From the NCBI GenBank assembly GCA_963790205.1, contig CAWBNQ010000006.1:63152-127151 (forward strand): a DNA stretch of 64,000 bases. Direction: 5' to 3'. This document shows, in pieces, positions 29,777 to 49,122 of this stretch. Position numbers and translations under genes: made by a program. The first letter of the stretch is position 1. Every line of letters begins with the position of its first letter. This DNA is from Nitrospirota bacterium (GTDB lineage: Bacteria > Nitrospirota > UBA9217). The notes beneath the pieces were generated by a model. It saw only the letters and a program-made list of their open reading frames with translations. It searched no databases and was not told the origin of the DNA.

Positions 29777-29794
29777 GGTCTCCCCCTTGTACTG

Positions 29795-29968
29795 CTTAGA
29801 CCCATTGTTGTACCATCTCGCTTGGGTCAGAAGCGTAGACGCTTTGTCGTACCCTCGCACGAAGAAGCATGCGAGGGGAATCAATGACCGCAGAGACGGG
29901 AATCAAGGGTAATGCTTAGACCCATTGTCTTACCATCTCGCTGAGAATCGCGAGACGGGAATCAAGGG
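29795..29968. repeat. Tandem and nested copies (B, C, D) of the structured 54-bp repeat
   Basis: B 29795-29909 contains C 29844-29884; D is 29915-29968. Confidence 0.85.
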
Positions 29969-30957: not shown

Positions 30958-31569
30958 AGCTCGGGAAACGCGGTACCTGCCCGGGTCAGCCGCTTCGCTC
31001 CGCCGCAGGGAGCGCCAGGCTGCTTTGCCCCGGTTCTACGGCTCATACACGGCTCCGCAACGCTTTGGCTCCGCGCGCGCTGCCCTGGTTGATGTGTCAT
31101 CATCTCGCGGCTTGCGGCGCGTTTTCCGCGCCTGTGCTCAGCGGTTGCCCTGCCGAGCAGTCACGGAACGCGGAAGGGAACTGGGACGCTCCTCTTCGCG
31201 GGAGGGAATTGCGGATATTATAGCGGAATAAGACATCCGTTGCCACAAAAAGATTATGCCGCGGTACTGTCGCATTCGCGTAAACACTCATAAGCGCTGG
31301 GTGCAGGCTCGTAAACGCTGGGCGCAGGCAGAGGGCACCGGGGAATACCGGGGTAAAACCCAAACGCGTTGAGTCTTATCAATAAGATGCTCTTGCTCTC
31401 GTGGTTTAATGACAAGACAAAGCAAACGGGGCTGGTAATAAAAAGAGCGCAGAAGGGGAGGGAGGACAGGGAGGAAGTTACCTCCCTGCATTCAAGACCT
31501 TCTCTGTGGTTAATTTTTGACATTACGCATGCCGCTGCGGGAAGCAACGCATGAAGAACTTCTATTGAC

Positions 31570-34305: not shown

Positions 34306-35208
34306 ATGATAAAAGACGACGATATATTTTATAAGACCCTTCTGGACAACCTCTACGACGGCGTCTACTTTGTCGACAAGGACCGGCGGATCACGTACTG
34401 GAACAAGGGCGCCGAGGGGATCACGGGGTACCCGGCCTCCGACGTCGTGGGCAAACACTGCTCGGACGACATCCTGGTGCACGTCGACCGTGAAGGGAAC
34501 AACCTCTGCCTGGGCATGTGCCCCCTGAGCGACACGATCAGCGACGGCAAGGCGCGCAGCTCGGACGTATACCTGCGGCACAAGGACGGCCATCGCGTGC
34601 ACGTCTTCGTGCGCGTGGCGCCCATACGCGGCGACGACGGCCGGATCGCGGGCGGCATCGAGGTCTTTACCGACAACACGCCCGCTGCCGAGGCCCTTGA
34701 ACGGTTTGCCGAGCTCGAGCGCCTGGCGTTCCTCGATTCCCTCACCGGGCTCGCCAACAGGCGGTATGCCGAGATCACCCTGAACGCCAGGATCGAGGAG
34801 CTGCAGCGGTACGGCTGGCGGTTCGGCGTCATTTTTATCGACATCGACCGTTTCAAGGCCGTTAACGACCGGCACGGGCACGACGCCGGCGACGAGGTAT
34901 TAAAGATGGTCGCCAAGACCCTCCAGAACAGCGTCCGCTCCTTCGACGTCGTCAGCCGTTGGGGCGGGGAGGAATACGTCGCCGTTATCGCGCACGTGGA
35001 AGGGGACGAACTCGCGGCCACGGCGAACCGGTGCCGGGCGCTCGTAGAACGGTCGAGCCTCCATGCCGAAACGCCCATCCATGTGACCATCTCGCTCGGC
35101 GCAACGCTTGCCCGCCAGGACGACACCGTGGCATCGCTTCTCAAGAGGGCGGACGGGCTCATGTACAAAAGCAAGGCCGCGGGCAGGAACGCCGTAACGA
35201 TGGACTAG
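34306..35208 (+). CDS. PAS-GGDEF diguanylate cyclase
   Basis: PAS domain, DSLTGLANRR, DIDRFKAVND and RWGGEEY. Confidence 0.92.
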   Translation: MIKDDDIFYKTLLDNLYDGVYFVDKDRRITYWNKGAEGITGYPASDVVGKHCSDDILVHVDREGNNLCLGMCPLSDTISDGKARSSDVYLRHKDGHRVHVFVRVAPIRGDDGRIAGGIEVFTDNTPAAEALERFAELERLAFLDSLTGLANRRYAEITLNARIEELQRYGWRFGVIFIDIDRFKAVNDRHGHDAGDEVLKMVAKTLQNSVRSFDVVSRWGGEEYVAVIAHVEGDELAATANRCRALVERSSLHAETPIHVTISLGATLARQDDTVASLLKRADGLMYKSKAAGRNAVTMD

Positions 35209-35283
35209 GGAGCGGAGCGCCGGTTTCCTGTCACGCTGCACGGCCTTCCGGCGCATAGATGCGCGCCTTGAGGACGGGAACGA

Positions 35284-36333
35284 TCACAACTCCTTGCCGA
35301 GCTCGATCAGGTCCGCCCGGCAGCTTCCGATCCGGGCCCCGAGCCACTCGATATGGCGTTCGAACCTGTTCTTCATCTCCCCGTAGTAACGCGAAAGTTC
35401 TTCCAGGCGATCGAGCGTTCCGAGCGTGCCGGTACCCGCGATATCGTGGAGCTTTGCGTCGAGCTCGCCGGACCTTTTCGTGAGCGTCGCCCTGTTCGCC
35501 TCATACGTTCTGATCGTACCCCTCAAGGCAGAGGCCAACGGGCCCGGTGCATCGCCGCCGATGACCCCGGCGAGCTCGTATAATTTCGCGAACTCGTCGG
35601 CCTTGATGAGCAGCCAGCCCTCCTCGTATTTTTCCAGCTCCGACAGGCACTCAAAATACTTCCGCTCTTCACCGAGCGATCTCAGCTCGTTCTGAAAATA
35701 GAAGACCTCTTCATCGGAAAGGTCCTTGTAGTGCGCCTCACGGCGGTCATACGGCCCGCTCCGGTACGCGGGCCAAAGCTCCCGGGCCAGTTCCAGGTCG
35801 TCCTTATCGACCGGGACGCGGCGCTCCACCACGGCGGCGTTCAGTTTCTGCCTGCGTGTTTCAAGCTTTTTCTTTTCTCCTTCCAGTTTCAGGACCCTTT
35901 CGCCGAGCTCACCTGCCAGCTTCCGGGAACCCTCGGCCAGCTCTTCATACCGGGCGGTCCGTCCGGCGTCAGCCTGTCCCAAAAAAAAGTTATTCACCGC
36001 GAGATCGAATTCAGAAGACATCCCCGAGGTCCAGTCGGCGTATTTTTGATACCATTCCAAAAGATCCTGGCGCTCGCCGGCCCTGTTGTCGGCCCCGTGG
36101 CCCGCCGCTTCGACCTGTTCGTTCAATAAAGCGGTGGTTTCCTTCACAAACGCAAGCGTCCTGCCGAGATCATCGGAGCCCATCAGAAGAAACGCCTTTT
36201 CCCGCTCGACCCGTTTTTTGAACGAATCCTGCGGACGAGTTCCGGGAGCGTCAGCCGCGCCGGCAGCCGATAAAGGGAGCAGAAGGAGCACTGCAGCGAA
36301 CAGACGGAGCCACGGTTGTTTCGGTAAATGCAT
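35284..36333 (-). CDS. Hypothetical secreted helical protein
   Basis: Signal peptide and coiled-coil composition. Confidence 0.6.
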   Translation of the reverse strand: MHLPKQPWLRLFAAVLLLLPLSAAGAADAPGTRPQDSFKKRVEREKAFLLMGSDDLGRTLAFVKETTALLNEQVEAAGHGADNRAGERQDLLEWYQKYADWTSGMSSEFDLAVNNFFLGQADAGRTARYEELAEGSRKLAGELGERVLKLEGEKKKLETRRQKLNAAVVERRVPVDKDDLELARELWPAYRSGPYDRREAHYKDLSDEEVFYFQNELRSLGEERKYFECLSELEKYEEGWLLIKADEFAKLYELAGVIGGDAPGPLASALRGTIRTYEANRATLTKRSGELDAKLHDIAGTGTLGTLDRLEELSRYYGEMKNRFERHIEWLGARIGSCRADLIELGKEL

Positions 36334-36545
36334 TTCGATCACCTTTCGCTTGCCTGATCCAGGCACGTTGTCCGGCCGGAGCGCACGGCGGCATTGTCGT
36401 AATGCCGGGGCTGAACCAGGGACCACGGGTCCCTTGGTCCCGGACGGCGGGTTGAAACGATCACGATGCTGTGCGGCGTAGCCGCCAGGAGATTTTTCCC
36501 GGGACGGTGTCGAGCAGCCGGTTGGATATCCCGTACTCTGTGAAG

Positions 36546-36857
36546 TCAGAGATTCAACGCAAAATTGACGGCGTCACGAATTTCACTCAGCTTTTCCTTT
36601 GATAGGGAGGTGATCATTGATCCGACGTTTGATTTTGACACCGTTTGCAGGTGGTCGCAATTAACGGCGCAATCATTCTGCATGCCGTCCCGGCGGGACA
36701 AGAGCACTTCGCTCGGGATATCCCTTATTGTTGAAGTTACCGGCGCGACAGTAACCTCACCCAAATATTCCAGGACGGAATTTCTCGTTAAAACAACCAC
36801 CGGACGTTTTTTATCGGGATGCTTGAACTTGTACCATCGCACCTCACCCCGCTTCAT
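36546..36857 (-). CDS. mazF: PemK/MazF-family toxin
   Basis: MKRGEVRW..KKRPVVVLTR..VTVAPVTS..NCDHLQTV. Confidence 0.9.
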   Translation of the reverse strand: MKRGEVRWYKFKHPDKKRPVVVLTRNSVLEYLGEVTVAPVTSTIRDIPSEVLLSRRDGMQNDCAVNCDHLQTVSKSNVGSMITSLSKEKLSEIRDAVNFALNL

Positions 36858-37087
36858 ACATCACCCCATTCTTGCTCTGACTCCCAGACGCTGAATTCCG
36901 TTTTGCCGGCAGGGTGTTGCCCATATCCTTTTTTGTGCTTTTTTTCGAGCTGGTTAACGGTAACCTGTTTGACGGCATTCCTTAATGCCATGCGCGCAAA
37001 AGCGGACCGGGTTGTTTTTAATTTTTTGACGACCTGGTCAACGGTTGCGACCAGTTCATCATCCAAGGTCATTTGTATGGTCTTCAT
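36854..37087 (-). CDS. Ribbon-helix-helix antitoxin (CopG family)
   Basis: MKTIQMTLDDELV..TRSAFARMAL; ATGA overlap with the toxin; AGGAGG RBS. Confidence 0.85.
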   Translation of the reverse strand: MKTIQMTLDDELVATVDQVVKKLKTTRSAFARMALRNAVKQVTVNQLEKKHKKGYGQHPAGKTEFSVWESEQEWGDV

Positions 37088-37149
37088 ACTGCCCCTCCTG
37101 TAATGTGGATACTTATAGCTATAATAATCCACATTGCATCCCGTGTCAA

Positions 37150-37292
37150 GGCTCAGACTTCGTATCCAGGCGCTGCCGGAAACAGCGGCACAGGGCGAAG
37201 AAGCGGATCGTCCTGGGCCTGTCGAAGGATGATCTCCGCGAGCCGCCCGGTGCGGCCCCGCACGCCGGGTGGTGCGGGGCTGGGGGCTAACC
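37150..37292 (+). mobile_element. Group IIC intron remnant (degenerate maturase tail, domain V and start of domain VI)
   Basis: GAGCCGCCCGGTGCGGCCCCGCACGCCGGGTGGTG hairpin with a CGC triad at 37240-37274. The upstream sequence reads RLRLRI/RRCRKQ..LGLSKD. Confidence 0.7.
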
Positions 37293-37618
37293 ATTAATGG
37301 TCTCTGTTGTAGCGTCAAAATGTACAGCGCATATAATCTATCTTTCACGTTCGGAAAAAAGGCTGCTACTCTCATTAATATGGCAATGCTAGCTAAAACG
37401 AGTGCAATTACGCGGCCCATTTGAGGGCGGTAATATAGGAGAACGCCTGATAGAATGCCAAGAGAAATATACCCGAAAGCTCTTATATATCCGGTAATGA
37501 ATTCTTCTCTGAATAAATCGGGAATTTTCTGGAATGGGGGTAGATAAACTAAGAGTGAAGCATAAATTACGGCTGTAATGATGCCAAAGCGATGAGTAGA
37601 CATTTTTATAGGATTCAT
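37293..37618 (-). pseudogene. Cassette membrane protein truncated by the intron remnant
   Basis: AT-rich TM ORF starting after attC 37633, switching abruptly to GC-rich sequence at about 37292. Confidence 0.6.
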
Positions 37619-37632
37619 ATTGTTCTCTTCTA

Positions 37633-37698
37633 AACTAACGCGCGGGTGTACCGCCGGGCGGGTTCATCGCCCGGACGGACACGACCCGCATGTTGGAT
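37633..37698 (-). other. attC site
   Basis: AACTAAC...GTTGGAT imperfect hairpin, 66 bp, directly after the cassette ORF stop. Confidence 0.85.
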
Positions 37699-37701
37699 TC
37701 A

Positions 37702-37989
37702 TCATTGTTTTATGGGGCGACATTTATCAGTGATGCAATATGTGACCTCACCGGTTTTCGTATCCAAGACATATGCCGCAGGAAATGCATTTGTACTTGC
37801 TGAAACTGCTTGGTAACGGTTTGAGGAATGCGATTGAACACCATAAGATATGACGGCCATGACAAATATAAGAGGCAGCACGATTAAGACGGCAATGCGC
37901 TTCATTTTGTTTTTGAAGATAATGTCGTGTGCCATAATGAAATCTTTGTCATTAAGTAACTCTTGAACAGTACCCGGAAGTTCTGGCAT
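37702..37989 (-). CDS. Cassette hypothetical membrane protein
   Basis: GGAGG RBS, one TM segment, ends beside an attC. Confidence 0.65.
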   Translation of the reverse strand: MPELPGTVQELLNDKDFIMAHDIIFKNKMKRIAVLIVLPLIFVMAVISYGVQSHSSNRYQAVSASTNAFPAAYVLDTKTGEVTYCITDKCRPIKQ

Positions 37990-38155
37990 TGGGCCTCCTT
38001 TGGGGATGAGGTTTTTATGACGCCACAAGAATTGATCGTGAAATGGGAAAATATAGCGCGACGCAAATGGTACGATGCCGAGCAAGAAGCGTCACCCATG
38101 GGAAAAAGGCTTATCGAGCATGGCGCTCTGTGTTATCAAAATTGTGCACGCGAAC

Positions 38156-38524
38156 TCAGGGAAGTCCTAATTTCAGTTTCGCCTCTGCCTTCAGCCACTC
38201 AAGAAGAAGGCCGAAAGTAATGGAGGCGCCAGGTTTCAATACGTTTTCTTTTGCTTTTTTCCATATGGTATCGTCCTTCGTGGCATCTAAGAAATCGTGG
38301 CCTTCCCAAGTTAGGCCTTTGATTATGACGCCGCCGATACCATGAGCCAATTTAACAGTTTTGCCATTAAGTAAGCCGGCCTCTACAAGAAGGTCTATGT
38401 GTTCATAAATGTCGGCATACTCGTATTCATGAAGCAAATAGTCAACATTGGTGTATTGTTTGCCAGCTGGCATATTTTCAATATCAAGCATGATGCGGCG
38501 GATAAGATCAAAATCACGTTTCAT
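38156..38524 (-). CDS. DUF2513 domain protein (cassette)
   Basis: MKRDFDLIRRIM..LTWEGHDFLDA..W.K. Confidence 0.85.
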   Translation of the reverse strand: MKRDFDLIRRIMLDIENMPAGKQYTNVDYLLHEYEYADIYEHIDLLVEAGLLNGKTVKLAHGIGGVIIKGLTWEGHDFLDATKDDTIWKKAKENVLKPGASITFGLLLEWLKAEAKLKLGLP

Positions 38525-38579
38525 GAGACACTCCATTCATATTTGTTGGCTATACAGCAGCGGCATAAGATTTTATAGA

Positions 38580-38637
38580 ATACAACGCGCGCGTGAGGAG
38601 CGTGTTTTTCGCGACTCACTCGACGCGCTTGTTAACA
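38580..38637 (-). other. attC site
   Basis: ATACAAC-GCGCGCGTGAGG...CTCGACGCGCTT-GTTAACA, 58 bp. Confidence 0.85.
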
Positions 38638-38647
38638 ACCAGCTTTA

Positions 38648-38929
38648 CTAATTTGTCTGTGGTGCTCTATCATCTGCATATTCTTTGATAGTATCCGATA
38701 GAAATTGAGCAACGGACTTCTCAACATCAGCATCGAGAATATAAGGCCGATTCTTTTGAGAGGATGAGATGCCAAAATCGACAGTTATGGCAGGCATTGA
38801 AGTATTCAGCAAAACATAATCGTAACTGCGCAGTAACTGGATGCAGCTGAAAAGATCTGATTCGCCTAATTTCTTCGAGATTGCACCTGCGATAGAAAGG
38901 CTTTCTTCGTGTTTATTGTCAGCCGACAA
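38648..38929 (-). CDS. Cassette hypothetical protein (probably 5'-truncated)
   Basis: Ends 10 bp from an attC; weak TTG start and no upstream attC. Confidence 0.45.
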   Translation of the reverse strand: MSADNKHEESLSIAGAISKKLGESDLFSCIQLLRSYDYVLLNTSMPAITVDFGISSSQKNRPYILDADVEKSVAQFLSDTIKEYADDRAPQTN

Positions 38930-39001
38930 AGCCGCTAATATCTCATTTAGTCCAGCTCTTTAAACGACCTGACGCCTGCTGAATTCAAGCTGCACGAGTT
39001 G

Positions 39002-39367
39002 TCAAAGATCGGTCAAAACCTCTAATTGCAAGTGGCACAACAAAGGGGGGTAGCTCACTCTATCTATGATGGTCTTTTCTACAAGGTCAAAGGCACCGTC
39101 TGGCGTTATCGTCCCTGAGAGGATAATTGGAGCTCCTATTTTAGCATACCGATAAGACCCAACCAATTGACCTTCACGGAGAGAACCAAGAATCATTGAA
39201 ATCTTACTGTTTTTCCCAAGGACACCATAATAATGATTTTGCCATAGAAAAGAATCCTGGGAAGGGCGTTTGGCAGCAAGCGCAGGCAGCACCACAGAGA
39301 AGGTCAGAAGTATTACGATAGAGAAACGCAATAATAATTCTAAAGCTCTCAGGCGCCTATTTGTCAT
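39002..39367 (-). CDS. Cassette secreted protein (probably 3'-truncated)
   Basis: Signal peptide and YYGVLG..GSYRY..I.LSG. No attC follows. Confidence 0.55.
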   Translation of the reverse strand: MTNRRLRALELLLRFSIVILLTFSVVLPALAAKRPSQDSFLWQNHYYGVLGKNSKISMILGSLREGQLVGSYRYAKIGAPIILSGTITPDGAFDLVEKTIIDRVSYPPLLCHLQLEVLTDL

Positions 39368-39385
39368 GATGTTCTCCATCTCCTG

Positions 39386-39437
39386 CACTAACGCGAAGAT
39401 GAGCCCCGTACCGTCGGGTTCGATCTTCTGGTTGGAT
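39386..39437 (-). other. attC site
   Basis: CACTAAC-GCGAAGATGAGCCC...GGGTTCGATCTTCTG-GTTGGAT, 52 bp. Confidence 0.8.
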
Positions 39438-39459
39438 GCTTTATTTCGCACCTCCGTCA

Positions 39460-39918
39460 TTATGGTTGTTTTGCGAATTTCAAAAGGGCATCGACATTCT
39501 TCCTGAAGTTATCATGATATGTTTTAGTTGTATCATGCGTTTCGATTAATTTGCCGTAGGAGTAGGATTGACCTTGCATAGGAACATACTGAAAATAATC
39601 CTTATTGTACTCCTGCCATGCATGGTTGAAGCGTTTTCTCTTGAACCAACCCAAATGGCGGCCAAACTCTGTGACGGCAATTTCAAGTTTAGGGAACTTA
39701 TCTTTCAGAATCTTGATGATGTCGATATCACGGGAAGGCCATTTGGCTGGAGTGGGATACAGTCCTTCGAGTTCCGTAAATACAGTGTTTCTGAATTTGT
39801 CGGCAGCTTCGATATAGCGTTTTTTGGTATAGATGCGCCACGTAATGTAGCCACCGAAACTCAAAGTAAGAACAGTACCAGCGATAGCGATGAAATATTT
39901 GTCGATCAGTTCACACAT
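39460..39918 (-). CDS. Cassette hypothetical protein with N-terminal TM segment
   Basis: AT-rich ORF between two attC sites. Confidence 0.65.
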   Translation of the reverse strand: MCELIDKYFIAIAGTVLTLSFGGYITWRIYTKKRYIEAADKFRNTVFTELEGLYPTPAKWPSRDIDIIKILKDKFPKLEIAVTEFGRHLGWFKRKRFNHAWQEYNKDYFQYVPMQGQSYSYGKLIETHDTTKTYHDNFRKNVDALLKFAKQP

Positions 39919-40024
39919 TGGATAATTTGGCTCAGCGCAATAGTGGGATTAGGTATTATGCTAGTTTTTCTTATTCTTCTAGACCGTTGAGCCGCTTGAC
40001 GGACTCGAACTGCTGGTTGGCAAA

Positions 40025-40083
40025 TTCCAACGCCGACGTGAGGAACGCGTCTCTCAGCGTTTCTCTCGACGGCGAGGTTATCA
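40025..40083 (-). other. attC site
   Basis: TTCCAAC-GCCGACGTGAGG...CTCTCGACGGCGAG-GTTATCA, 59 bp, abutting a stop codon. Confidence 0.88.
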
Positions 40084-40698
40084 TTACTTCGAAAGAATTT
40101 TTCCGGTATCATCTTCAACATGGACTTCTTTATCTGACCTGTCATCTTGGAATATTATTGTCTTTTCTTCTTTCTTAGGTAACTTAAATGAGTTGTAAAT
40201 GCCGGAGCCGCTAACGTAAAGGTCTCTATGTTGCCAAACTTTATTGCCGTCAATTAACTTTAACTTTGCAACCATGCCAATGCCACCAACATAGATATAG
40301 TTTGCCGAGATTAAAAGAGGTGAAATATTGAAAGCATTAACCTCCGTAGCCCACAGTAGGCGGTAATTAGTCGGGTCGAACTGTGCGATTATCGCGCTAC
40401 CAGCGTCATCATCTGTAATACCAAACGTAAATAGGATTTTATTTTCGTAAATTTGGTATTTAACACTTTCTATATAAAAGTATTCTGGCAGGTTGATCTT
40501 TGCCGTCGAAACTTTTCCAGAATGCTTAACTAACATATCTCCCTTGGTCTCGATATGATAGCTGTTACCGTTAATTTGAAGATCACACGGCTTATCAGTC
40601 CCCATCATGAAGCAGGTTTCTTCCGATGAGAAGGCTGCGTTCGCAATCAATAGCGATATAATCATTGCCACGGAAAGAACCTTCGAATTTACCGTCAT
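40084..40698 (-). CDS. Cassette secreted protein with PQQ-like beta-propeller motifs
   Basis: Signal peptide and SPLLI..YIYVG..L.DG.KVW. Confidence 0.65.
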   Translation of the reverse strand: MTVNSKVLSVAMIISLLIANAAFSSEETCFMMGTDKPCDLQINGNSYHIETKGDMLVKHSGKVSTAKINLPEYFYIESVKYQIYENKILFTFGITDDDAGSAIIAQFDPTNYRLLWATEVNAFNISPLLISANYIYVGGIGMVAKLKLIDGNKVWQHRDLYVSGSGIYNSFKLPKKEEKTIIFQDDRSDKEVHVEDDTGKILSK

Positions 40699-40715
40699 AG
40701 GTAATCCTCACAAAA

Positions 40716-40774
40716 AGATAACGCCGCCGTGAGGGGCGCGTTTCGCAGCGACCCTCTCGACGGCGTGGTTATAA
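40716..40774 (-). other. attC site
   Basis: AGATAAC-GCCGCCGTGAGGG...CCCTCTCGACGGCGTG-GTTATAA, 59 bp. Confidence 0.9.
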
Positions 40775-40775
40775 A

Positions 40776-41267
40776 TTATTGTTCCTTTCTTCGACGTACT
40801 ATTAACGATAATATCTTCTTTAATAATGGCCATCTTTTGGCAAAATCCTTTTTATTCTTTGACTCCGACCAAACTATATGGCCATTCAGTGCGGAGAAAT
40901 TTGACCACGATGACCATGTGTAATTGTTAACCCTTTTAGGCGTACGCGACCCATCCTGGACAAATAATATCTTATCCTCTCCGTCAACTCGTGGCGTTAT
41001 GTCGATGAGTACGCCCTGTCTCTTGACTACACCATGAAATTCGGCGACCATGCATGTTTGTTTTATGTCCGCCCAAATAATCCAACCGTAAACAATTTGG
41101 CAGCCCGTTCGCTTTTGTTCCAACTCACAATTATCCAAACAATAACTTGCCTTATAATCAGGTAACGCATATGTAAACTTGAGATATTGTGGTTGCTTAG
41201 ATAAACCAATGGCCTTAAGGAATTGCTTAATATTTGGCGATATTGCACTTGGTGTAGTCAGTTTCAT
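40776..41267 (-). CDS. Cassette hypothetical protein
   Basis: C..NC..VYGW.IW..AEFH.V..DITP motif; ends at an attC. Confidence 0.7.
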   Translation of the reverse strand: MKLTTPSAISPNIKQFLKAIGLSKQPQYLKFTYALPDYKASYCLDNCELEQKRTGCQIVYGWIIWADIKQTCMVAEFHGVVKRQGVLIDITPRVDGEDKILFVQDGSRTPKRVNNYTWSSWSNFSALNGHIVWSESKNKKDFAKRWPLLKKILSLIVRRRKEQ

Positions 41268-41279
41268 GCCGATAGCACC

Positions 41280-41334
41280 ATATAGCGCCGAGGTCAGACG
41301 TGCACCGTTGCGCGTCGGTACCCGTTGGTTATCT
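41280..41334 (-). other. Degenerate attC (R' GTT mutated to GCT)
   Basis: ATATAGC...GTTATCT, 55 bp, between two cassette ORFs. Confidence 0.55.
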
Positions 41335-41342
41335 TTCAGTAG

Positions 41343-41906
41343 TCATTTTGAATAGAAAAACGATTCCTTCGGGCTTACGATATCAAGCGTATACAAACGT
41401 TCTTCATCATTAGGTCCATTTGAGAAAGAATCAAGTTCGACGATGTTCTTTCCAAAGTCGAAGTCAAGTATCGTTCTTTTTTTGTAAGCGCGAGTAGGAA
41501 ATTGATTAACCTGAACGCCCAAGCTTTTATTTTTGGCGGACAGATCGGAAAGAATCCTTCTAAGCGTGGCAAACAGTGTAGCTGTATTTTGGTCGAGGTA
41601 GGAGTGATTGCCAATTGTAATTGATTTCTTATCTGGAATCTTGATAAAGACTTCTTTCTTTGAATCTTTTATGGAATTCAGGATGATTGAATCATTGTTT
41701 GTTTTACAAGATACTGGATCTTTCCCGAGCTTGCTGATTTCCTGATATAAGGCCTCGATTGCCTCAATAGTTGCGTAATCAGAAGCTTGGATGATTTGAG
41801 GATATTCCTGGTCAGCAGGACGATAAGCGTCTTTCACGTCCGCTGAAAACGCGGTCGATGTCATTATCAAAATGACGGAAAATGTTATCAAAAAGATTCG
41901 CATCAT
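41343..41906 (-). CDS. Cassette hypothetical secreted protein
   Basis: AGGAG RBS after an attC, and a signal peptide. Confidence 0.7.
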   Translation of the reverse strand: MMRIFLITFSVILIMTSTAFSADVKDAYRPADQEYPQIIQASDYATIEAIEALYQEISKLGKDPVSCKTNNDSIILNSIKDSKKEVFIKIPDKKSITIGNHSYLDQNTATLFATLRRILSDLSAKNKSLGVQVNQFPTRAYKKRTILDFDFGKNIVELDSFSNGPNDEERLYTLDIVSPKESFFYSK

Positions 41907-41927
41907 CACTTCCAACTTCTCCTTTAT

Positions 41928-41980
41928 AGATAACGCCGCCGTGAGGGACCGTAAGGTTCCTCTCGACGGCGTTGTTAGAA
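41928..41980 (-). other. attC site
   Basis: AGATAAC-GCCGCCGTGAGGGACC...GGTTCCTCTCGACGGCGTT-GTTAGAA, 53 bp. Confidence 0.9.
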
Positions 41981-41991
41981 TCATTGGCCGT

Positions 41992-42579
41992 TCACTTGTC
42001 CGCCAAGGCGATCACTCCATCTTCCGGTTTATACATAAAAATGCCTTTGTCGTCCTTCTGGTAAAAATATGAAATATCTGTAATGTCTACTTCCTTGCCG
42101 GCGAACTGCCCATCTAGTATTTCTGTATACGGCGTAAGCGTTTCTACATGACCGTAAAACCAACTGATGCCTGTATGCTTGTCGAGACGACTCGTACGTA
42201 ATCTTGTGCCTTTTCTTACGACGCCCACTACGTCAATCGGATACTCATAGTCGCCGGATTTTACAATAGAGGCAGCCCGCGGATTCTTTTAGTATTCTGC
42301 GATAGTGCGCGGAGAACTTTCGTGGCGTCCGCAGCCCCTGTCAAGAGAAGCTTCGGGTACCAGTACATACCTTCCATGTGGCGCCATCCCCTGCGAAGAT
42401 TTCTGAAGAAAAATGTCTCTCAATAAGACGTAATTGCGTTGATACTTGTATTCGCCCCACAGCTCAGGTTTGTTGGAAACATTTGATGTGTAGTCACAAC
42501 CGGCAACAAGGATATTCATAGCCAGCACGAGAATAGTTATGAATTTGGTGGAGATGAATGATTTGAGGAAGCGTGTCAT
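41992..42579 (-). pseudogene. Cassette lipoprotein with an in-frame TAA at 42289-42291
   Basis: Lipobox VAGC. ORFs 42289-42579 and 41992-42228 share a frame (..AEY*KNPR..). Confidence 0.65.
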
Positions 42580-43079
42580 AAGAACTCCAAACTAACGCGC
42601 GCCTGACGCGCCGCATGGCGCTTCCAGTCCACGGCCCGGCACTAATTGACAGTGCTTGTCCTAGACCAACAAGAATGATAGGTATTGAGCTAAGAAGCGT
42701 AGACATCATCCTGTTGCTAATCCTCGTTTTCTCGGCCATAGATAGTTCTCACTTGAAAAAGAATGAAACTAATGTTAAGGCTTCTTTCTGAACGCTTTAT
42801 TCAGAAAGAAGCTGGTTGGACTAAGCCGTTGCGCGCCACGTCGCTATGGGATTTCAAATGATTTGTCAGCTTAAAACGAAGTCCGCGGAGACAGCATTGG
42901 CAGGGGCGTGAGACTTGTTCGGGTGAAAAGCGGCGATTCCGGACTGCTCCGCAAGCCCCTTTCGTAAAAGACTATACAGGAAAAAGGGCTTTTGGGCAAT
43001 AGGGTATCGTTGCGAAAGACGTGACTTTTTTCGGGGATGGATGTCGGAGTCGGGTTGTTCATTTCAGTGCTTGTGGTAA

Positions 43080-44273
43080 TCATATTCGCGGCGGTCCTTT
43101 GCAGCGCGCGGGCTGCATGATCTCGATTGTGCGCATTCTGCGTTCGCCGCAGGCAGGGCATTTGGCCACGTCAATGCCGGCGATCCTGAGCAAAGCTTCC
43201 TGCCACGTCTCAGTCTTCTGCTCCGCCTCGTTCTGATCAACGCAGGCCAGAAGCTCTCTGCATTGGTCGAGTTTCTTTCTGCGGCATCTGTTTCCCAACA
43301 GACCGTAATGCCTGATTTTGACAAACCGGTCGGGCAGGACATGAAGCAGGAACCGCCGGATGAACTCATCGGCGTCCACGGTCATGATCTTGCTTTTGTT
43401 GCTGTCCGCGTAGTCGCGCCACCGGAAGGAGATCTTGTCGTCCATCATCTTCACGAGCCGGTGATTGCTGATCGCGATACGGTGGGTGTATCTGCCGAGA
43501 TACTCAAGAACGCCTTTTGTTCCGTCGAACGGCGGCTTACAATAGACGACCCACTGCTTCTTGTACAAATCGGCGATGAAGGCCTTGAAAACTCCCGGCG
43601 ACGCAAGATGGCTTACGACGCCGGGGTAGACAAGTTTGTTCTCGGCACGGAGTTTTTTCAGATAAGCGAGAAACTTCCCCCGAAAGAGTTTCGACATGAC
43701 CTTGACGGGAAGGAAAAAGCCATTCTTGCATGATTTCCATTTCCGTCCGCCCTTGGACAATCCGCCGCCGGTGACGATGTTGTGGAGATGCGGATGATCC
43801 ATAAGGTTCTGTCCCCAGGTGTGCAGGATCGAGATAAAACCGATTTCCGCGCCCAAGTGTTTCTGCGTATTCGAGAGTTCCGTCAGGGTTTCCGAAACGG
43901 CCTTGAACAGGATCCCGTAGAGGGCCTCCTGGTTCCGGAGCACAAGGGGATTGAGTTTATCGGGGATGGTAAAAACGACATGGAAGTAAGGAATGGGAAG
44001 CAGGTCTTCTTCCCGGGCCTCGATCCACTGCTCTTTTTTAAGGAACTGGCACTTGGGGCAATGCCGGTTTCTGCAGGAGTTGTACGAGATCACTTTTGTC
44101 CCGCAGTGCTCGCATTCGTCCACGTGACCGCCTTGGTCGGCGGTGCGGCAGGTCTCGATCGCCCGCATGGCGCGAAGACGATTCAAGGGCATGGGATGAG
44201 CGTTCCGGTAAAGAGGACCGTACCGGCGAAAGATGTCCGCGACTTCGATCTGTAGGCTATCTCGCGTGTACAC
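43080..44273 (-). CDS. IS91-family (Y2 HUH) transposase with Zn-binding domain
   Basis: CRT..C..C..YNSCRNRHCPKC, YFHVVFT, HTWG..HPHLH, YLGRYTHR and IRHYGLL motifs. Confidence 0.93.
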   Translation of the reverse strand: MYTRDSLQIEVADIFRRYGPLYRNAHPMPLNRLRAMRAIETCRTADQGGHVDECEHCGTKVISYNSCRNRHCPKCQFLKKEQWIEAREEDLLPIPYFHVVFTIPDKLNPLVLRNQEALYGILFKAVSETLTELSNTQKHLGAEIGFISILHTWGQNLMDHPHLHNIVTGGGLSKGGRKWKSCKNGFFLPVKVMSKLFRGKFLAYLKKLRAENKLVYPGVVSHLASPGVFKAFIADLYKKQWVVYCKPPFDGTKGVLEYLGRYTHRIAISNHRLVKMMDDKISFRWRDYADSNKSKIMTVDADEFIRRFLLHVLPDRFVKIRHYGLLGNRCRRKKLDQCRELLACVDQNEAEQKTETWQEALLRIAGIDVAKCPACGERRMRTIEIMQPARCKGPPRI

Positions 44274-44294
44274 CGCGGGTGTCGCGTGTGCAGG

Positions 44295-45152
44295 CTACGA
44301 GGTTTGTGGAGGATTTAAGAAGGGGCCTAAGTCCAGAGGGCTCACGATCTTTGAGAGGTTCTTTTTGCTCACGTGGAGATAAATAGTGGTCGTTCTCACC
44401 GACGCATGGCCGAGCAGAAGCTGAATATAGTGCAGATCAGCTCCCGACTCCAGCAGGTGTGTGGCGAAGCTATGCCGAAGCGTGTGACAACTTGCCGGCT
44501 TCGTGATGCCGGCTTTTTTCTTCGCGCGTTTGAACGCCTCTTGGACGGTGCTAATGGAAATGTAGTTTTCAGGCTTTTCTCCCGGAAAGAGCCAATGCGT
44601 CGGTCTATATTCTTTCCAGTATTCCCGAAGCGCTTCCAGCGCTACCTGGGATAAAAGGGTATACCGGTCTTTTTTGCCTTTGCCCTGGTCCACGCGTATC
44701 AGCATACGGCTGCTGTCGATGTCCGTGATCTTGAGCCGGGCGGTCTCGCTCGCCCGGAGCCCTGCCGAGTAGGTCACCATCAGCATCACGCGCTGCTTCA
44801 GGCTGGGAGTGGCTTCGAACATGGCCTGTACCTCCTCCCGTTCGAGAACGATAGGAAGTGTCTTGGTCGTCTTCGGATAGGGAATCTTGTCCATCACCCA
44901 ACCTTTGCCCAGCGTCGTTTCATAGAGGAACCGCAGCGCGCTGTAAGTTATCTTCAGGGTGGATAGCGATACCTTCTTATCCCGGACGAGGTAAAGCAGA
45001 TACGCTTTGACATCGCCGTCTTCCAAAAGGTCGGGCGGTTTTTTAAAATGGCGTTCCATATCGCGCGCCGCCCGGTGATACAATGATTGCGTCTTCGGGG
45101 CTAATCCTCGAAGCACCATGTCGCCCTGCATCTGTTCTTTGAACGTTTCCAT
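44295..45152 (-). CDS. Tyrosine recombinase (XerD/phage integrase family)
   Basis: YSAGLR, GKGKKDR, HTLRHSFATHLLE and LLGH..TTIY motifs. Confidence 0.93.
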   Translation of the reverse strand: METFKEQMQGDMVLRGLAPKTQSLYHRAARDMERHFKKPPDLLEDGDVKAYLLYLVRDKKVSLSTLKITYSALRFLYETTLGKGWVMDKIPYPKTTKTLPIVLEREEVQAMFEATPSLKQRVMLMVTYSAGLRASETARLKITDIDSSRMLIRVDQGKGKKDRYTLLSQVALEALREYWKEYRPTHWLFPGEKPENYISISTVQEAFKRAKKKAGITKPASCHTLRHSFATHLLESGADLHYIQLLLGHASVRTTTIYLHVSKKNLSKIVSPLDLGPFLNPPQTS

Positions 45153-45338
45153 TGCATAATCTCCTTCCGTTGAATCGAAATTCCAACGGCATGACGCCGA
45201 TGGTGATGCGAAAGAAGATTGTAGAACGGTCAGGATTATGAAGCAAGGAGCGAGACGAAGAAAATCTATCGAGATATGCGGGGATGAATTGTAGAGAGAC
45301 TTATTGGAATGCGAATAACACCGCCGCGCAGCGGCTTA

Positions 45339-45395
45339 GTTCAACAAGGAATTGTGTAGCCCCCTCTATAATTCTGGATTTCCGGAATTATAGAG
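45339..45395 (-). promoter_or_regulatory. Putative attI region with adjacent palindrome
   Basis: Minus-strand GTTGAAC core at 45339-45345 upstream of intI, next to the palindrome CTCTATAATTC..GAATTATAGAG (45364-45395). Confidence 0.5.
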
Positions 45396-45631
45396 TTTAG
45401 CAAAATACATGCCGTTTTGAGACTGCTGCATTCATTGCTTTTATTATGTTTTCAAGCACATCACGTACGAAAAATCCTAAAATATCCATCGTTTTTCCGC
45501 TCATAGGGGGAGTATATTTTATGCCTATACGCATGTCAAGATAATAAAAGTAATTGACCATTCAGTGGAATTCGATAAAATATGCCGGAATTTGGGTGCT
45601 CTATGCGAAAGCGAGGTTTACTCACTATCCT

Positions 45632-47233
45632 ATGGAACCTATCCCGAAAGATCTTCTCGTCCAATTTGACGACATTCTCAAGCAGCGGAATGTTCCCCTC
45701 TCCTCACACTCGGATTACCGGAAGTGGTTGCGATATTTTCTCGACTATCGCGCAAAATATTCGCCGCCCGATGCCAAGACCGATCAAGTGAGGCTGTTCG
45801 CCGAAAAGCTGCGGTCCAAGAATCAAACTGCGAAGCAACTGGAAGAGGCGGCGGATGCCGTTTCGCTCTTATTCGCGTTGCAGCAACGAAAGGATAAAGA
45901 GCCGGAAAAACAAGACATCGGGGAAACGGTACTCAAACAAACCCATCCCGAACTTAATTCTCCCCTTGGAGAGGAGGAAACCGGCAAATCGGAGAACATG
46001 CCGATTACTGGAGAAACCCGTGCTCAGAATGAACCCGGCATTGAATCTTCTTCGGCAGCATCTTTCGGGCCTTTTGCTCCCCGTTCAAGAGGGGGAAATC
46101 GCTATGATGAATGGCGCTGCCTGAGGAAAACCGAGTCTCCTGCCTGGGACAAAGTTATTGCAGACCTTGCGGCGGAGATTAACGGGCTGTTGCCCAAATC
46201 ACTTTGCGCCCAAAATGTCATTCTGAGCGCAGCGAAGAATCTCGCATTTACAATATGATTGCAGACCCTTCACTTTGCTCAGGGTGACAAAAAATAGTTT
46301 GGGCAACAGCCCCTTAAGCTGCGACACCTTGCGCGGAATACGCTGAAAGCGTATGCGAACTGGATCCGAAAGTTCCAAAACTACCTGAAAAACAAACCGC
46401 CGGACACTTTGTCACCGGTAGAGGTGAAGGCGTATCTTACCTATCTGGCTGTGGACTGCAAGGTGTCCTCCAGTCACCAGGACCAGGCGTTTAACGCTTT
46501 GCTGTTTCTGTACCGGCATGTTCTTAAACAGGATTTTGGAATTCTCAAAGACATTCCCCGCGCGAAAAAATCGAATTACATCCCCGTGGTCCTTTCCCGT
46601 CAGGAAATCGACGCCATTCTGGGGCATCTCTCGTATCCCTACAAGCTCATCGCTCAGCTCCAGTACGGCTGCGGACTTCGCGTCACTGAAAGCGTTACCC
46701 TGCGCGCAAAGGATTTTAATTTTGACGCCGGGATACTCACGGTCCGCGGGAAAGGCAATAAAACCCGCACCGTGCCCATCCCTAAAAAGATAACGCCGGA
46801 ACTACTGGCCCAAATGGAAGCTGTAAAAAAACTTCATGACAAGGACATGGAGGCGGGGTTCGCGGGAGTGTTTCTTGACGATCAGCTTGAAAAGAAGTAT
46901 CCAAGGGCCGCGAAGGAGCTTGTCTGGCAATGGTTTATGCCGCAAGAGTCCTTGACGTTCGTTGCTGAGACGAAGGAACGGCGGCGGTATCATATTCATA
47001 AAACGCATGTTCAGGATGCGCTGTATGCAGCAGTCAGGAAAACCAGGCTCACGAAACGCGTCACCCCTCACACCTTCCGCCATTGTTATGCAACGCACCT
47101 GCTTCAGGCAGGCTATGACCTTCGCACGATCCAGACGCTCCTCGGCCACGCGGACATCAGGACGACGATGATCTATCTGCACTGTATCCCGGGCAAACCA
47201 GAGAAAGAGGTAATGAGCCCGCTGGATTTCTGA
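45632..47233 (+). pseudogene. intI: Integron integrase (long N-terminal form) interrupted by a MITE
   Basis: Removing 135 bp restores EIKLRHLARNTLKAYANWIRKF. QAFNALLFLY, YGCGLR, the IntI patch KYPRAAKELVWQWFMP..RRRYH and HTFRHCYATHLL are present. Confidence 0.9.
46183..46313. mobile_element. 131-bp MITE with 15-bp perfect IR and TTAA target duplication
   Basis: TTAA 46179-46182, GGGCTGTTGCCCAAA ... TTTGGGCAACAGCCC, TTAA 46314-46317. Confidence 0.88.
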
Positions 47234-47418
47234 TCAGAACAAACAGCTTGAACCGCGAAGGCGCTAGGGACGCCAGGAAAGCAAAATAAGTTTGAGGTTT
47301 AAGTCGGATGACGGTGGTTTCCTCGCGACCTTTGCGGCCTGGCGGTAAAGTAAGTCATAGCACGTTTCGTTCAATCCTTCCACTTTTCGTTTGACCCTGC
47401 CACTATAAATGAATTATC

Positions 47419-49122
47419 ATGCTTCCCATGCATTCCTGGCACGGTAAAGCGCTGTACATCGACCTTTCTGCGCGGAAGACGTGGACTGAGAACCTCTCCG
47501 AAGAATTCCTGGCTCGGCACCTCGGCGGCAGGGGGCTCGGGGTTGCGCTGATGAAGGATTTCTTCAGGCTCGACCCTTATGATCCCCGCATGCCTCTGAT
47601 CTTCGCTGTCGGTCCGCTCTGCGGCACGCCGGCCCCGGCTTCGTCGCGCATGTCCGTGGTGTCCCGCTCTCCGCTCACGGGCACGATAACGGATTCATCG
47701 GTGGGCGGATCGTTACCGATAAAGCTGAAAAGCGCGGGTTACGATTGTCTCGTGGTTATTGGCAAGGCGTCATCGCCGGTCTATGTTTCTTTCAAGGACG
47801 ATGAGGTCCGGATCAAGGACGCGTCACATCTCTGGGGCAAGGGCTGCCAGGAAACGAACGCGCTGCTCGGGCCGGAGGGAACTTCCGCCTGCATCGGCCC
47901 AGCGGGGGAGCGGCTCGTCCGTTTTGCGAACATCATGATCGGCGAGGCGAATTCCGCGGGCCGCGGAGGGCTCGGCGCGGTCATGGGCGCTAAGAACCTC
48001 AAGGCAATCGTGGGGGAGGGGTCGAAGAAAGTCACGCTATCGGATTCCTCGGCGTTCAGGAAGGCGCAGGACGACGTGATGCGGCTCTTGCGCGCTTCTC
48101 CCGTGGTCATGGGGGAGCTGGGGCTGGGTGAATACGGGACCGCAACGCTCGTTGACATCGTGGGCCAGAGAAAGATGGCGCCCACGGAAAATTTCAAGAA
48201 GACCTTCTTCCCGGAGGCAAAGGCGTACTCCGGGCCGAGCTTAAAGAAAGAATTCGGCTTCAAGAAGCATGGCTGCGCGGCCTGTCCCATCCAGTGCAAG
48301 AAGGAAACGTCCTGCGGCAGGCCCGTGCCCGAGTACGAGACGCTTTCGCATTTCGGCGCTTTGAACGCGAACTCGGATGCGGAGTCCATTGTCAAGGCGA
48401 ACCTTCTGTGCAACAATTTCGGCATGGACACCATCTCGGCTGCTTCGACCTTTGCTGCGTATGGAGAGTCGCGCGGGAGATTCTTCACGGGCGATGAGAT
48501 CCTTGACATGCTCAGGAAGACGGCTTATCGCGAAGGAGAGGGGGACAAGATCGCGGAGGGCTCCAAGCGGCTTTGCGCGCTTCTCGGCAAGCCGCAATTC
48601 TCGATGAGCGTCAAAGGTCTCGAACTGCCGGCCTATGACCCGCGCGGCTCCTACGGCATTGCGCTTGCCTACGGAACGTCCACCCGCGGCGGGTGCCACC
48701 TCCGCGCCTATCCCATCAGCCAGGAGATCCTGAGAAAACCCGTTGCCGTGGACCGCTTCAGCTTCGACGGAAAAGCAAGGATGATCAAGATCGCGGAGGA
48801 CAACAACGCGATCGTGGACTCCCTTTCGATCTGCGCCTTCGCGTTCCTTGGGGCCTCGATCGAGGAGTACGCCCAGATGCTCGTCGCGGCAACGGGCATA
48901 CCCTTCACCGGGCAGGGCTTGATGAAAACCGGGGAAGAGATCATACTCGCGGAGCGGCGGTATAACAAGGAAAACGGTTTTACGATGGCTGACGACTTCC
49001 TGCCCGAGCGGTTCTACACCGAAGCCGGGACTTCCGGCGAAGGCATCAACATCCCTTTGATAGACAAAAAAAGGTTCACTGAGGAATTAGAGAAGTACTA
49101 CAGGATGAGGGGAGAAGGGTAA
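47419..49122 (+). CDS. Aldehyde:ferredoxin oxidoreductase family (W/Mo cofactor)
   Basis: LGGRGLG, SPLTG, IGPAGE, GRGGLGAVMGAKNLKA, CAACPIQC, GMDTIS and YDPR..RGGCH motifs. Confidence 0.93.
   Translation: MLPMHSWHGKALYIDLSARKTWTENLSEEFLARHLGGRGLGVALMKDFFRLDPYDPRMPLIFAVGPLCGTPAPASSRMSVVSRSPLTGTITDSSVGGSLPIKLKSAGYDCLVVIGKASSPVYVSFKDDEVRIKDASHLWGKGCQETNALLGPEGTSACIGPAGERLVRFANIMIGEANSAGRGGLGAVMGAKNLKAIVGEGSKKVTLSDSSAFRKAQDDVMRLLRASPVVMGELGLGEYGTATLVDIVGQRKMAPTENFKKTFFPEAKAYSGPSLKKEFGFKKHGCAACPIQCKKETSCGRPVPEYETLSHFGALNANSDAESIVKANLLCNNFGMDTISAASTFAAYGESRGRFFTGDEILDMLRKTAYREGEGDKIAEGSKRLCALLGKPQFSMSVKGLELPAYDPRGSYGIALAYGTSTRGGCHLRAYPISQEILRKPVAVDRFSFDGKARMIKIAEDNNAIVDSLSICAFAFLGASIEEYAQMLVAATGIPFTGQGLMKTGEEIILAERRYNKENGFTMADDFLPERFYTEAGTSGEGINIPLIDKKRFTEELEKYYRMRGEG

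Follow-up and report, generated by a model that had tools for sequence, protein, structure and literature searches.

How does a tyrosine recombinase gene followed by an IS91-like transposase gene come to lie between the integrase gene of an integron and its cassette array, in the slot next to attI? The question is raised by a stretch of 64,000 nucleotides (nt), called the window here, from a Nitrospirota bacterium (lineage UBA9217; contig CAWBNQ010000006.1, positions 63,152 to 127,151). A first-pass annotation of the window had described this two-gene unit as a cassette look-alike bounded by inverted repeats, which may copy itself out by rolling circle and insert at attI and attC cores, parasitising the integron or substituting for its disrupted integrase IntI. 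We find that the element is real, intact and recently active, with ends that mimic an integron cassette, and its sequence features suggest that it inserts itself as cassettes do. Our main reading, to which we give a probability of about 65%, is that of an autonomous cassette-like integrative element of the IS91 plus tyrosine-recombinase (ISAzo26-like) kind, in which the HUH enzyme would make single-stranded circles and an IntI-related recombinase would integrate the folded junction of these circles into double-stranded cores, attI among them.

Extent of the mobile unit

The genome (G000) holds seven full copies of the element, which differ by 0–1 bases, and three right-end fragments of relatives. 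Common to all seven is the stretch from 45344 down to 42771, which extends beyond the right-hand repeat and takes in the complete hairpin next to it; each copy starts with TTGAAC (45344) and finishes with CCTTAACA↓TT (42773; the arrow marks the crossover). As the copies share sequence past the right repeat, the unit comprises 2,572 bp, to which the common TT is added; it has a repeat at its very end on the left side only, and the hairpin is part of it. This TT is all that the two ends have in common, with no target duplication beyond it, and a single crossover at R↓TT consequently describes the insertion. The boundaries are also supported by six further multi-copy or two-copy groups in which both ends are informative. 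The parts of the element are as follows:

42773..45344, minus strand: mobile unit, 2,572 bp (2,574 bp with the TT at 42771-42772 that opens the next cassette), from the seven-copy comparison
45325..45344, minus strand: left end, an R'-like box TTGAAC plus the outer-stem arm (terminal inverted-repeat arm), from the copy comparison
44295..45152, minus strand: tyrosine recombinase, 285 amino acids (aa), PF00589 and PF13495
43080..44273, minus strand: IS91-family Y2/HUH protein, 397 aa, with zinc-binding domain, HLH motif and YxxxY, PF04986, PF14319 and NF033538
42844..42860, minus strand: internal oriIS-like motif CATTTGAAATCCCATAG, whose CCATA stops 72 nt short of the crossover, from its likeness to fetched IS91 and IS1294-like ends
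42815..42835, minus strand: internal inverted-repeat arm ending in the R''-like box GTCCAAC, predicted to pair with the left end once joined
42780..42812, minus strand: inner 13-bp stem with a 7-nt loop (analogue of the L-box and variable terminal structure)
42773..42779, minus strand: unpaired spacer and final element base, CTTAACA, beside the crossover

The gene pair named by the first-pass annotation is borne out by Pfam domains and, for the Y2 protein, by a match of 471 bits to NF033538 (cut-off 125); we propose this protein as the rolling-circle initiator. Likewise, the 21-bp inverted repeats (42815-42835 and 45325-45345; 19/21 identical; 2,531 bp from outer end to outer end), the 55-nt hairpin at 42767-42821 with its 13-bp perfect stem and the minus-strand oriIS-like motif were all found where they had been placed. 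What changes is their interpretation: the repeats do not bound the unit, as 7/7 copies run past the right one and its arm lies 43 bp inside the element end; the hairpin, described earlier as attC-like, is identical in all copies and hence the element's own right end and no attC of the array; and its supposedly mutated far core ATT consists of an A, the invariable final base of the element, and the target's TT, the G at 45345 belonging to attI. An Rfam search of positions 35000-48000 gave no match. Elsewhere in the genome (G000:C3:666990-667496), a right-end fragment of a related element is followed by TTGGACTAAGCC, which is either a left-end stub or an inverted copy of the fragment's own R'' arm.

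Conservation in homologues

Homologues were collected from 78 loci of GTDB (found by the transposase), 64 metagenome loci (found with a recombinase query), loci of the family and six plasmid loci, together 158 transposase clusters, in 83 of which both ends were called. The recombinase gene stands upstream of the transposase gene in 76/78 GTDB loci, and the loci carry the labels Nitrospirota, Bacillota, Alpha- and Betaproteobacteria and others. The layout of the right end is constant: the ori motif comes first, next a repeat arm that closes with an R''-like box and, after 3 nt, a stem-loop whose loop varies; 7 nt separate its second strand from the crossover, which is either R↓TT or G↓WA and thereby defines a TT and a WA subtype. 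The ori motif is present in 72/72 distinct right ends, 61-159 nt from the crossover, and resembles the final bases of fetched IS91 and of an IS1294-like element. Even a distant second family of recombinase plus Y2 protein (L235-L244 in genome G037; 10 copies of 2,434 bp, 35% transposase identity) has the same end layout, with an A↓TT crossover. The cassette-like build with conserved ends thus held when homologues were aligned. The ends and repeat arms are kept in the homologues, and in their flanks the expected enrichment for attI-like sequence is present in the TT subtype and absent from the WA subtype (see below).

Two sets of loci deserve a separate remark. Homologues in bins labelled Bathyarchaeota and Nitrososphaerales (L011, L061) may be binning errors. 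Copies in Rhizobium and Sinorhizobium (L192, L194, L195) sit in palindromic repeats with TAA-N6-TTA cores and adjoin other tyrosine-recombinase genes, sites that we take to be reminiscent of RIT ends or dif.

The joined ends and their predicted fold

Contigs of four public sequencing runs, runs with small word shares being left aside, were compared with the window at 85% likeness. Among the 15 joints listed (of 20), the sole clean one, in run X1, leads from 45342 to 42771, i.e., back by 2,572 bp, with 2 ambiguous bases and a depth of 4.9; the other 14 (skips, or joints with sequence not known in between) were taken as noise from relatives. The right end is also joined to the left end in the loci L010, L014 and L119, the latter consisting of one unit plus a 55-nt overlap. 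The X1 joint matches the predicted end-to-end junction, which could stem from a circle or from a tandem pair, and the junction anticipated by the first-pass annotation is thereby present in sequence data. An oriIS-terIS circle junction was not among the junctions seen in these contigs and loci, where rare oriIS joints would not appear.

Only when joined do the ends form, by prediction, a long two-stem, attC-like hairpin, with a fold of -32 kcal/mol (z -6.9) for the natural L119 junction. R'' covaries with the left end across subtypes (CAAC/GTTG, CTTC/GAAG, CAAT/ATTG), and the 510 pair cells of 30 distinct outer stems comprise 415 Watson-Crick pairs, 58 G-T pairs on the non-coding strand, a single G-T pair on the coding strand and 36 other mismatches; counted by position, the G-T bias of the outer stem is 9 to 1 for the non-coding strand. 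In 42 distinct inner stems, which differ in sequence and loop length and still pair, G-T pairs number 18 on the non-coding versus 2 on the coding strand. Neutral transitions predict equal numbers, and the observed counts, inflated by the relatedness of the sequences, argue for a junction hairpin that favours one strand, the non-coding one. It is on this same strand that attC sites fold. In IS91, the active intermediate is described as a bottom-strand single-stranded circle (PMC13181058), and if "bottom" refers there to the non-coding strand, as we infer from a figure legend, the predicted junction fold and the IS91 circle would involve the same strand.

The copy at attI

The integron as such is real: the C-terminal part of intI passes TIGR02249 (319 bits, cut-off 265), and a cassette array follows on the minus strand. 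Its features are:

45554..47233, plus strand: integron integrase gene intI, split by an inserted repeat, TIGR02249
46179..46317, no strand assigned: 138-bp multi-copy repeat that interrupts intI, with 4 further genome copies at 97-99%, and not present in the intI of L010 and L080
45345..45395, minus strand: left part of attI, with a 32-bp palindrome (45364-45395) and the AA-N7 core, which reaches to the crossover G (45345-45353)
45511..45539, minus strand: candidate Pc promoter TTGACA-17-TATACT, 11/12, facing the array, by consensus match only
36546..42772, minus strand: cassette array downstream of the element, with attC R' boxes at 41934, 40722, 40031, 39392, 37639 and more

A search of the left flank against 64 genomes of the family yielded five element-free relatives (L080, which has intI, L099, L087, L086 and L095) in which different first cassettes begin at this same G↓TT; the window copy therefore sits at the attI crossover, and the attI-proximal position assigned to it earlier is confirmed. 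It lies in cassette orientation between the candidate Pc promoter and the array. Of the seven genome copies, three occupy copies of this attI (the other two at G000:C1:331877-334925 and C3:523299-526455), one is a base off the relatives' attI 11-mer and three lie elsewhere. One of the two further attI-seated copies is without intI, the right end of a related element preceding it, and beside the other lies an intI that has lost a large internal part. The suggestion that the element's recombinase replaces the disrupted IntI is not sustained: the local intI is broken, but an intact intI of 463 aa is found on contig C5 (G000:C5:72807-74198).

Several observations on the surroundings may be added. 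IntI proteins of this family (window 45554-47233; G000:C5:72807-74198) measure about 460 aa and have a long N-terminal extension with a second SAM-like domain. The 138-bp repeat in intI has several shorter relatives in the genome and looks like a small non-autonomous element. In L008 (position 737), an intI gene carries a homologue of the element in its 5' part. At its far end, the window's array holds a PemK/MazF toxin and ribbon-helix-helix antitoxin pair (window 36546-37085), and dispersed 26-59-nt repeat families (D1, D6, D15) occur outside the integron at 1066-1151, 29789-29968 and 31287-31333 of the window.

Target sites

Targets were drawn from the 83 elements with both ends called, after removal of 8 whose register was uncertain, 9 whose flanks were short and 7 duplicates. 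In the TT subtype (25 non-redundant sites), a purine at -1 is found in 25/25, TT-purine follows the crossover and 13 have AA at -9/-8. When two further left flanks are included, AA-N7-TT occurs in 14/27 non-redundant TT-type flanks compared with 200/2,126 control sites (9%; p 3e-8), and AA at N6 or N7 in 18/27 compared with 15%. The layout AA-N7-TT is seen in all five distinct target sites of this genome and in attI1 as well, while ISAzo26 and the Rhizobium copies have AA-N6-TT targets. The 22 sites of the WA subtype invariably have G at -1 and T at -9, and their arm symmetry peaks at a spacer of 7. On these grounds, the targets look like tyrosine-recombinase cores and not like IS91 tetranucleotides.

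Flanks were called attI-like at up to 3 mismatches to the 11-mer of the element-free sites, in a sample rich in Nitrospirota; this holds for 10/48 TT-type flanks, 0/32 WA-type flanks and 10/2,869 controls (0.35%). The enrichment for attI is real for the TT subtype, and most insertions lie outside integrons. Specificity for integrons, as implied by the first-pass annotation, is not supported: 4/7 genome copies are away from this attI family (one of them at a near match to its motif), and 38/48 TT-type and 32/32 WA-type sites are not attI-like. An intI piece lies upstream on the opposite strand in 3/28 TT-type flanks of at least 1.5 kb, and an attC lies downstream in the element's orientation in 7/23 TT-type and 1/20 WA-type flanks, compared with 1/23 TT-type flanks in the opposite orientation and 6/120 random genome windows.

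The proposal of insertion at attI and attC cores survives for attI, whereas attC was seldom the target in our set: 1/30 forward (control 0.9%) and 0/30 backward (control 0.4%), with a caller that finds only 4 of about 9 window attC sites. A first attC caller, which found 2 real window attC sites and called 0/54 targets, was too blunt and was set aside. Across R'' and L'' the window attC sites read AA, seven bases, then the L box, so that backward insertion at attC R'' would fit the core rule.

The recombinase and IntI

All catalytic columns (R-K-H-R-H-Y) are conserved in the element's recombinase, and the IntI-specific insertion is missing (a 36-column gap relative to the IntI of the window). 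It scores 205 bits against TIGR02249, under the cut-off of 265, and its best PDB match is IntI4. In a quick, midpoint-rooted tree of 64 rows, IntI forms one clade (99) and shares a branch with the element recombinases (Shimodaira-Hasegawa-like approximate likelihood ratio test 93), apart from the 10 other recombinases included; sister and nested positions are not separable. By these comparisons, the enzyme classifies as IntI-related rather than as an IntI. This agrees with the preprint 10.1101/542381, which names IS91 recombinases as closest homologues of IntI, and whose journal version keeps an integron-like subgroup. An IntI query found IntI in G160 and not in the other four of five element-bearing genomes (G037, 99% complete with at least five copies; G158, with eight copies; G159; G161), absence from a metagenome-assembled genome (MAG) meaning here not found with this query.

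Proposed mechanism

Copying from a chromosomal oriIS would miss the hairpin, which every copy has, as the motif lies 72 nt inside; the IS91 route hence did not give rise to the observed copies, and simple copy-out by rolling circle from the chromosome, as proposed earlier, is not supported. We rather envisage three steps. In the first, the recombinase would free a circle by a one-strand exchange of the folded right end with the left junction; the product would be completed by replication, and the donor copy would stay. In the second, the HUH protein would nick oriIS, either in the circle or in a tandem pair, releasing single-stranded circles of the non-coding strand. In the third, the junction would fold and the element's own recombinase would join it at the R box, by one strand exchange, to a double-stranded core of two inverted arms 6-7 bp apart, the product being resolved by replication. 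As attI sites would be good cores, the TT subtype would be enriched there, entering the first position in cassette orientation, and no integron would be needed. One-strand exchange of this kind has precedents in IntI, both for attC x attI (PMC4792948) and for attG sites (10.1101/2022.09.11.507474), and in XerC, which acts on CTX phage at dif (PMC4246890).

Several points weigh against this reading. The contig junction may be a tandem pair and not a free circle, and its basis is one contig from one run at 85% likeness plus three assembled loci. The excision of a single copy, i.e., the first circularisation, is a step that we purely infer. The wobble counts carry the inflation by relatedness, the strand called "bottom" in IS91 is taken from a legend, and the missing IntI genes are missing from MAGs. 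The end caller imposed the 3-nt and 8-nt registers, which the multi-copy groups confirm independently. Of the TT-type flanks, 9/27 are without AA at N6 or N7, and in the held-out distant family AA-N7 is found at only 2/10 sites, with A at -8 in 8/10. Finally, the insertion of IntI blocks the second strand exchange in integrons (PMC4792948); the element's recombinase does not have it, and the lopsided 3/7 internal loop is a candidate for what would stop the second exchange here.

Alternative explanations

The alternative that survives best, albeit an unlikely one, is a minimal integrative plasmid that uses ordinary double-stranded two-strand exchange, with the HUH protein only as replication initiator and the repeats as protein-binding sites without a fold. 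An intact recombinase without IntI insertion and core-like targets would suit such a plasmid, as would a reference title in PMC6563490 according to which IS91-like proteins are replication initiators in an archaeal virus. The double-stranded junction, on the other hand, is without the AA-N6/7-TT core, and the wobble bias concerns one strand, with inner stems that pair on despite changed sequence and loop length. Two-strand exchange tolerates spacer differences badly, and the 7-nt spacers of the targets vary freely relative to the element's own.

Slightly less credible is the option that cutting and joining at the junction hairpin fall to the Y2 protein, in the way that the transposases of IS200/IS605 use hairpins, the recombinase only resolving multimers. 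Single-stranded hairpins are indeed substrates of HUH enzymes, all homologues retain both the Y2 protein and the ori motif, and the strand bias is equally compatible with this view. However, IS91 is cut right at its motif, whereas here the motif lies 61-159 nt from the crossover; the target information, which has the form of inverted arms and not of a tetranucleotide, lies to either side of the crossover and also 8-9 bp upstream; and the crossover falls exactly where IntI cuts the R box.

A passive gene cassette, moved by IntI or host Xer through its attC-like end, appears improbable to us. The exact attI position and orientation and the intact intI elsewhere in the genome would be in line with it, IntI is described to insert cassettes at GWT sites genome-wide (10.1101/2022.09.11.507474), and in a Shewanella integron ISShvi3 was observed to form a cassette-like unit (PMC9229058). 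Nevertheless, multi-copy elements occur in genomes in which IntI was not found, the G↓WA crossovers of the WA subtype covary with their own R'' while attI-like sites number 0/32, the spacers of 3 and 7 nt and the unbulged inner stem are unlike those of window attC sites, and the recombinase gene is nearly always present (76/78 loci). Classical IS91 transposition from oriIS to terIS into a tetranucleotide, with the attI position due to chance, accounts for the NF033538 match and the ori-like motif, yet is already contradicted by copy boundaries that all extend past oriIS, by a junction at R↓TT with no CTTG/GTTC after the motif and by 3/7 copies at one attI family, and we give it next to no weight.

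Relation to known systems

The closest relative is ISAzo26 of Aromatoleum EbN1 (L191), with the same gene pair (transposase 50% identical), left end, ori motif, R'' box, inner stem and TT crossover; the element shares with its subgroup the recombinase directly upstream of the Y2 gene and the end layout, and differs in target spacer, which is 6 nt for ISAzo26 and the Rhizobium copies and mostly 7 nt in this clade. ISfinder lists such IS91 elements with a recombinase. ISShvi3 and ISWz1 are named in papers as IS91-family elements with an upstream tyrosine recombinase, the former beside an attC in an integron array (PMC9229058). The gene pair is accordingly catalogued already, and a full-text literature search, to which subscription papers, ISfinder and TnCentral were not open, found no description of the ends, of the hairpin that they form when joined, of core-like targets or of the mechanism; pages of ISfinder and TnCentral and Figure S2 of the Shewanella paper may describe the ends.

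With canonical IS91, IS801 and IS1294 the element shares a Y2/HUH enzyme (about 27% identical), an ori-like motif at the 3' end and the lack of target duplication, single-stranded circles being known for IS91. In contrast, IS91 ends at oriIS by CTTG/GTTC and has neither inverted repeats nor a recombinase (PMC13181058), and the fetched IS91 copies end right at the motif, beside CAAG or GAAC; the element ends 72 nt past the motif (61-159 nt in homologues), in a hairpin and at R↓TT or G↓WA, and has one terminal and one sub-terminal repeat arm (19/21), kept in homologues. The likeness to integron cassettes and IntI comprises the start TTRRRY, the single R↓TT crossover, R''/R' pairing in a site foldable on the bottom strand (by predicted folds and covariation only), one folded strand, the variable loop, cassette orientation at attI and a recombinase on the same branch as IntI. 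Unlike a cassette, the element has its own recombinase and a rolling-circle enzyme and is multi-copy outside integrons; unlike attC, it has an R stem of about 21 bp, spacers of 3 and 7 nt (5-6 nt in attC) and no extrahelical base in the inner stem.

In CTX phage and integrative mobile elements exploiting Xer (IMEXs), a rolling-circle single strand folds into an attachment site, exchanges one strand with a double-stranded core and is resolved by replication, copy-out being possible from tandem copies (PMC4246890). CTX depends on the XerC/XerD of its host and on dif as its only site, whereas the element has its own recombinase, no phage genes and five different target sites in one genome. The SEs (integrative elements that circularize with a strand bias) are likewise tyrosine-recombinase elements that copy out one strand, and differ in that two of their four core genes encode recombinases, an HUH enzyme is missing and the target genes are fixed (PMC9345347). 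Parasites that home to attC (group IIC-attC introns, IS1111-attC) also live inside integron arrays; they interrupt attC, whereas the element copy inserts at attI and brings its own hairpin. Being neither a canonical IS91 nor a canonical cassette, the element would by analogy work like a self-propelled cassette or a self-sufficient CTX.

Implications

In the window, the element represents a parasite that occupies the first, best-expressed slot of the integron and parts the promoter from the cassettes by 2.6 kb, with a presumable effect on the latter. Beyond this locus, the ends given for such elements in annotations may be wrong in position, as may some attC calls made next to them. There is a fair chance that the class is mechanistically new, and roles would be reassigned in a widespread, catalogued group, the recombinase being the integrase and the "transposase" the source of single strands. 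As a small system of two genes, the element would show how a tyrosine recombinase lacking the IntI insertion handles a folded single strand, a matter that bears directly on the origin of integrons.

Only tentatively do we extend this to the idea that IS91-plus-recombinase elements are a separate class of autonomous single-strand-integrating elements rather than rolling-circle transposons, and living intermediates between Xer-type recombinases and integrons, IntI being derived from the recombinase of such an element, attC from its end hairpin and attI from one of its preferred targets. If true, this would resolve the chicken-and-egg question that attC and the IntI insertion pose (PMC4792948).

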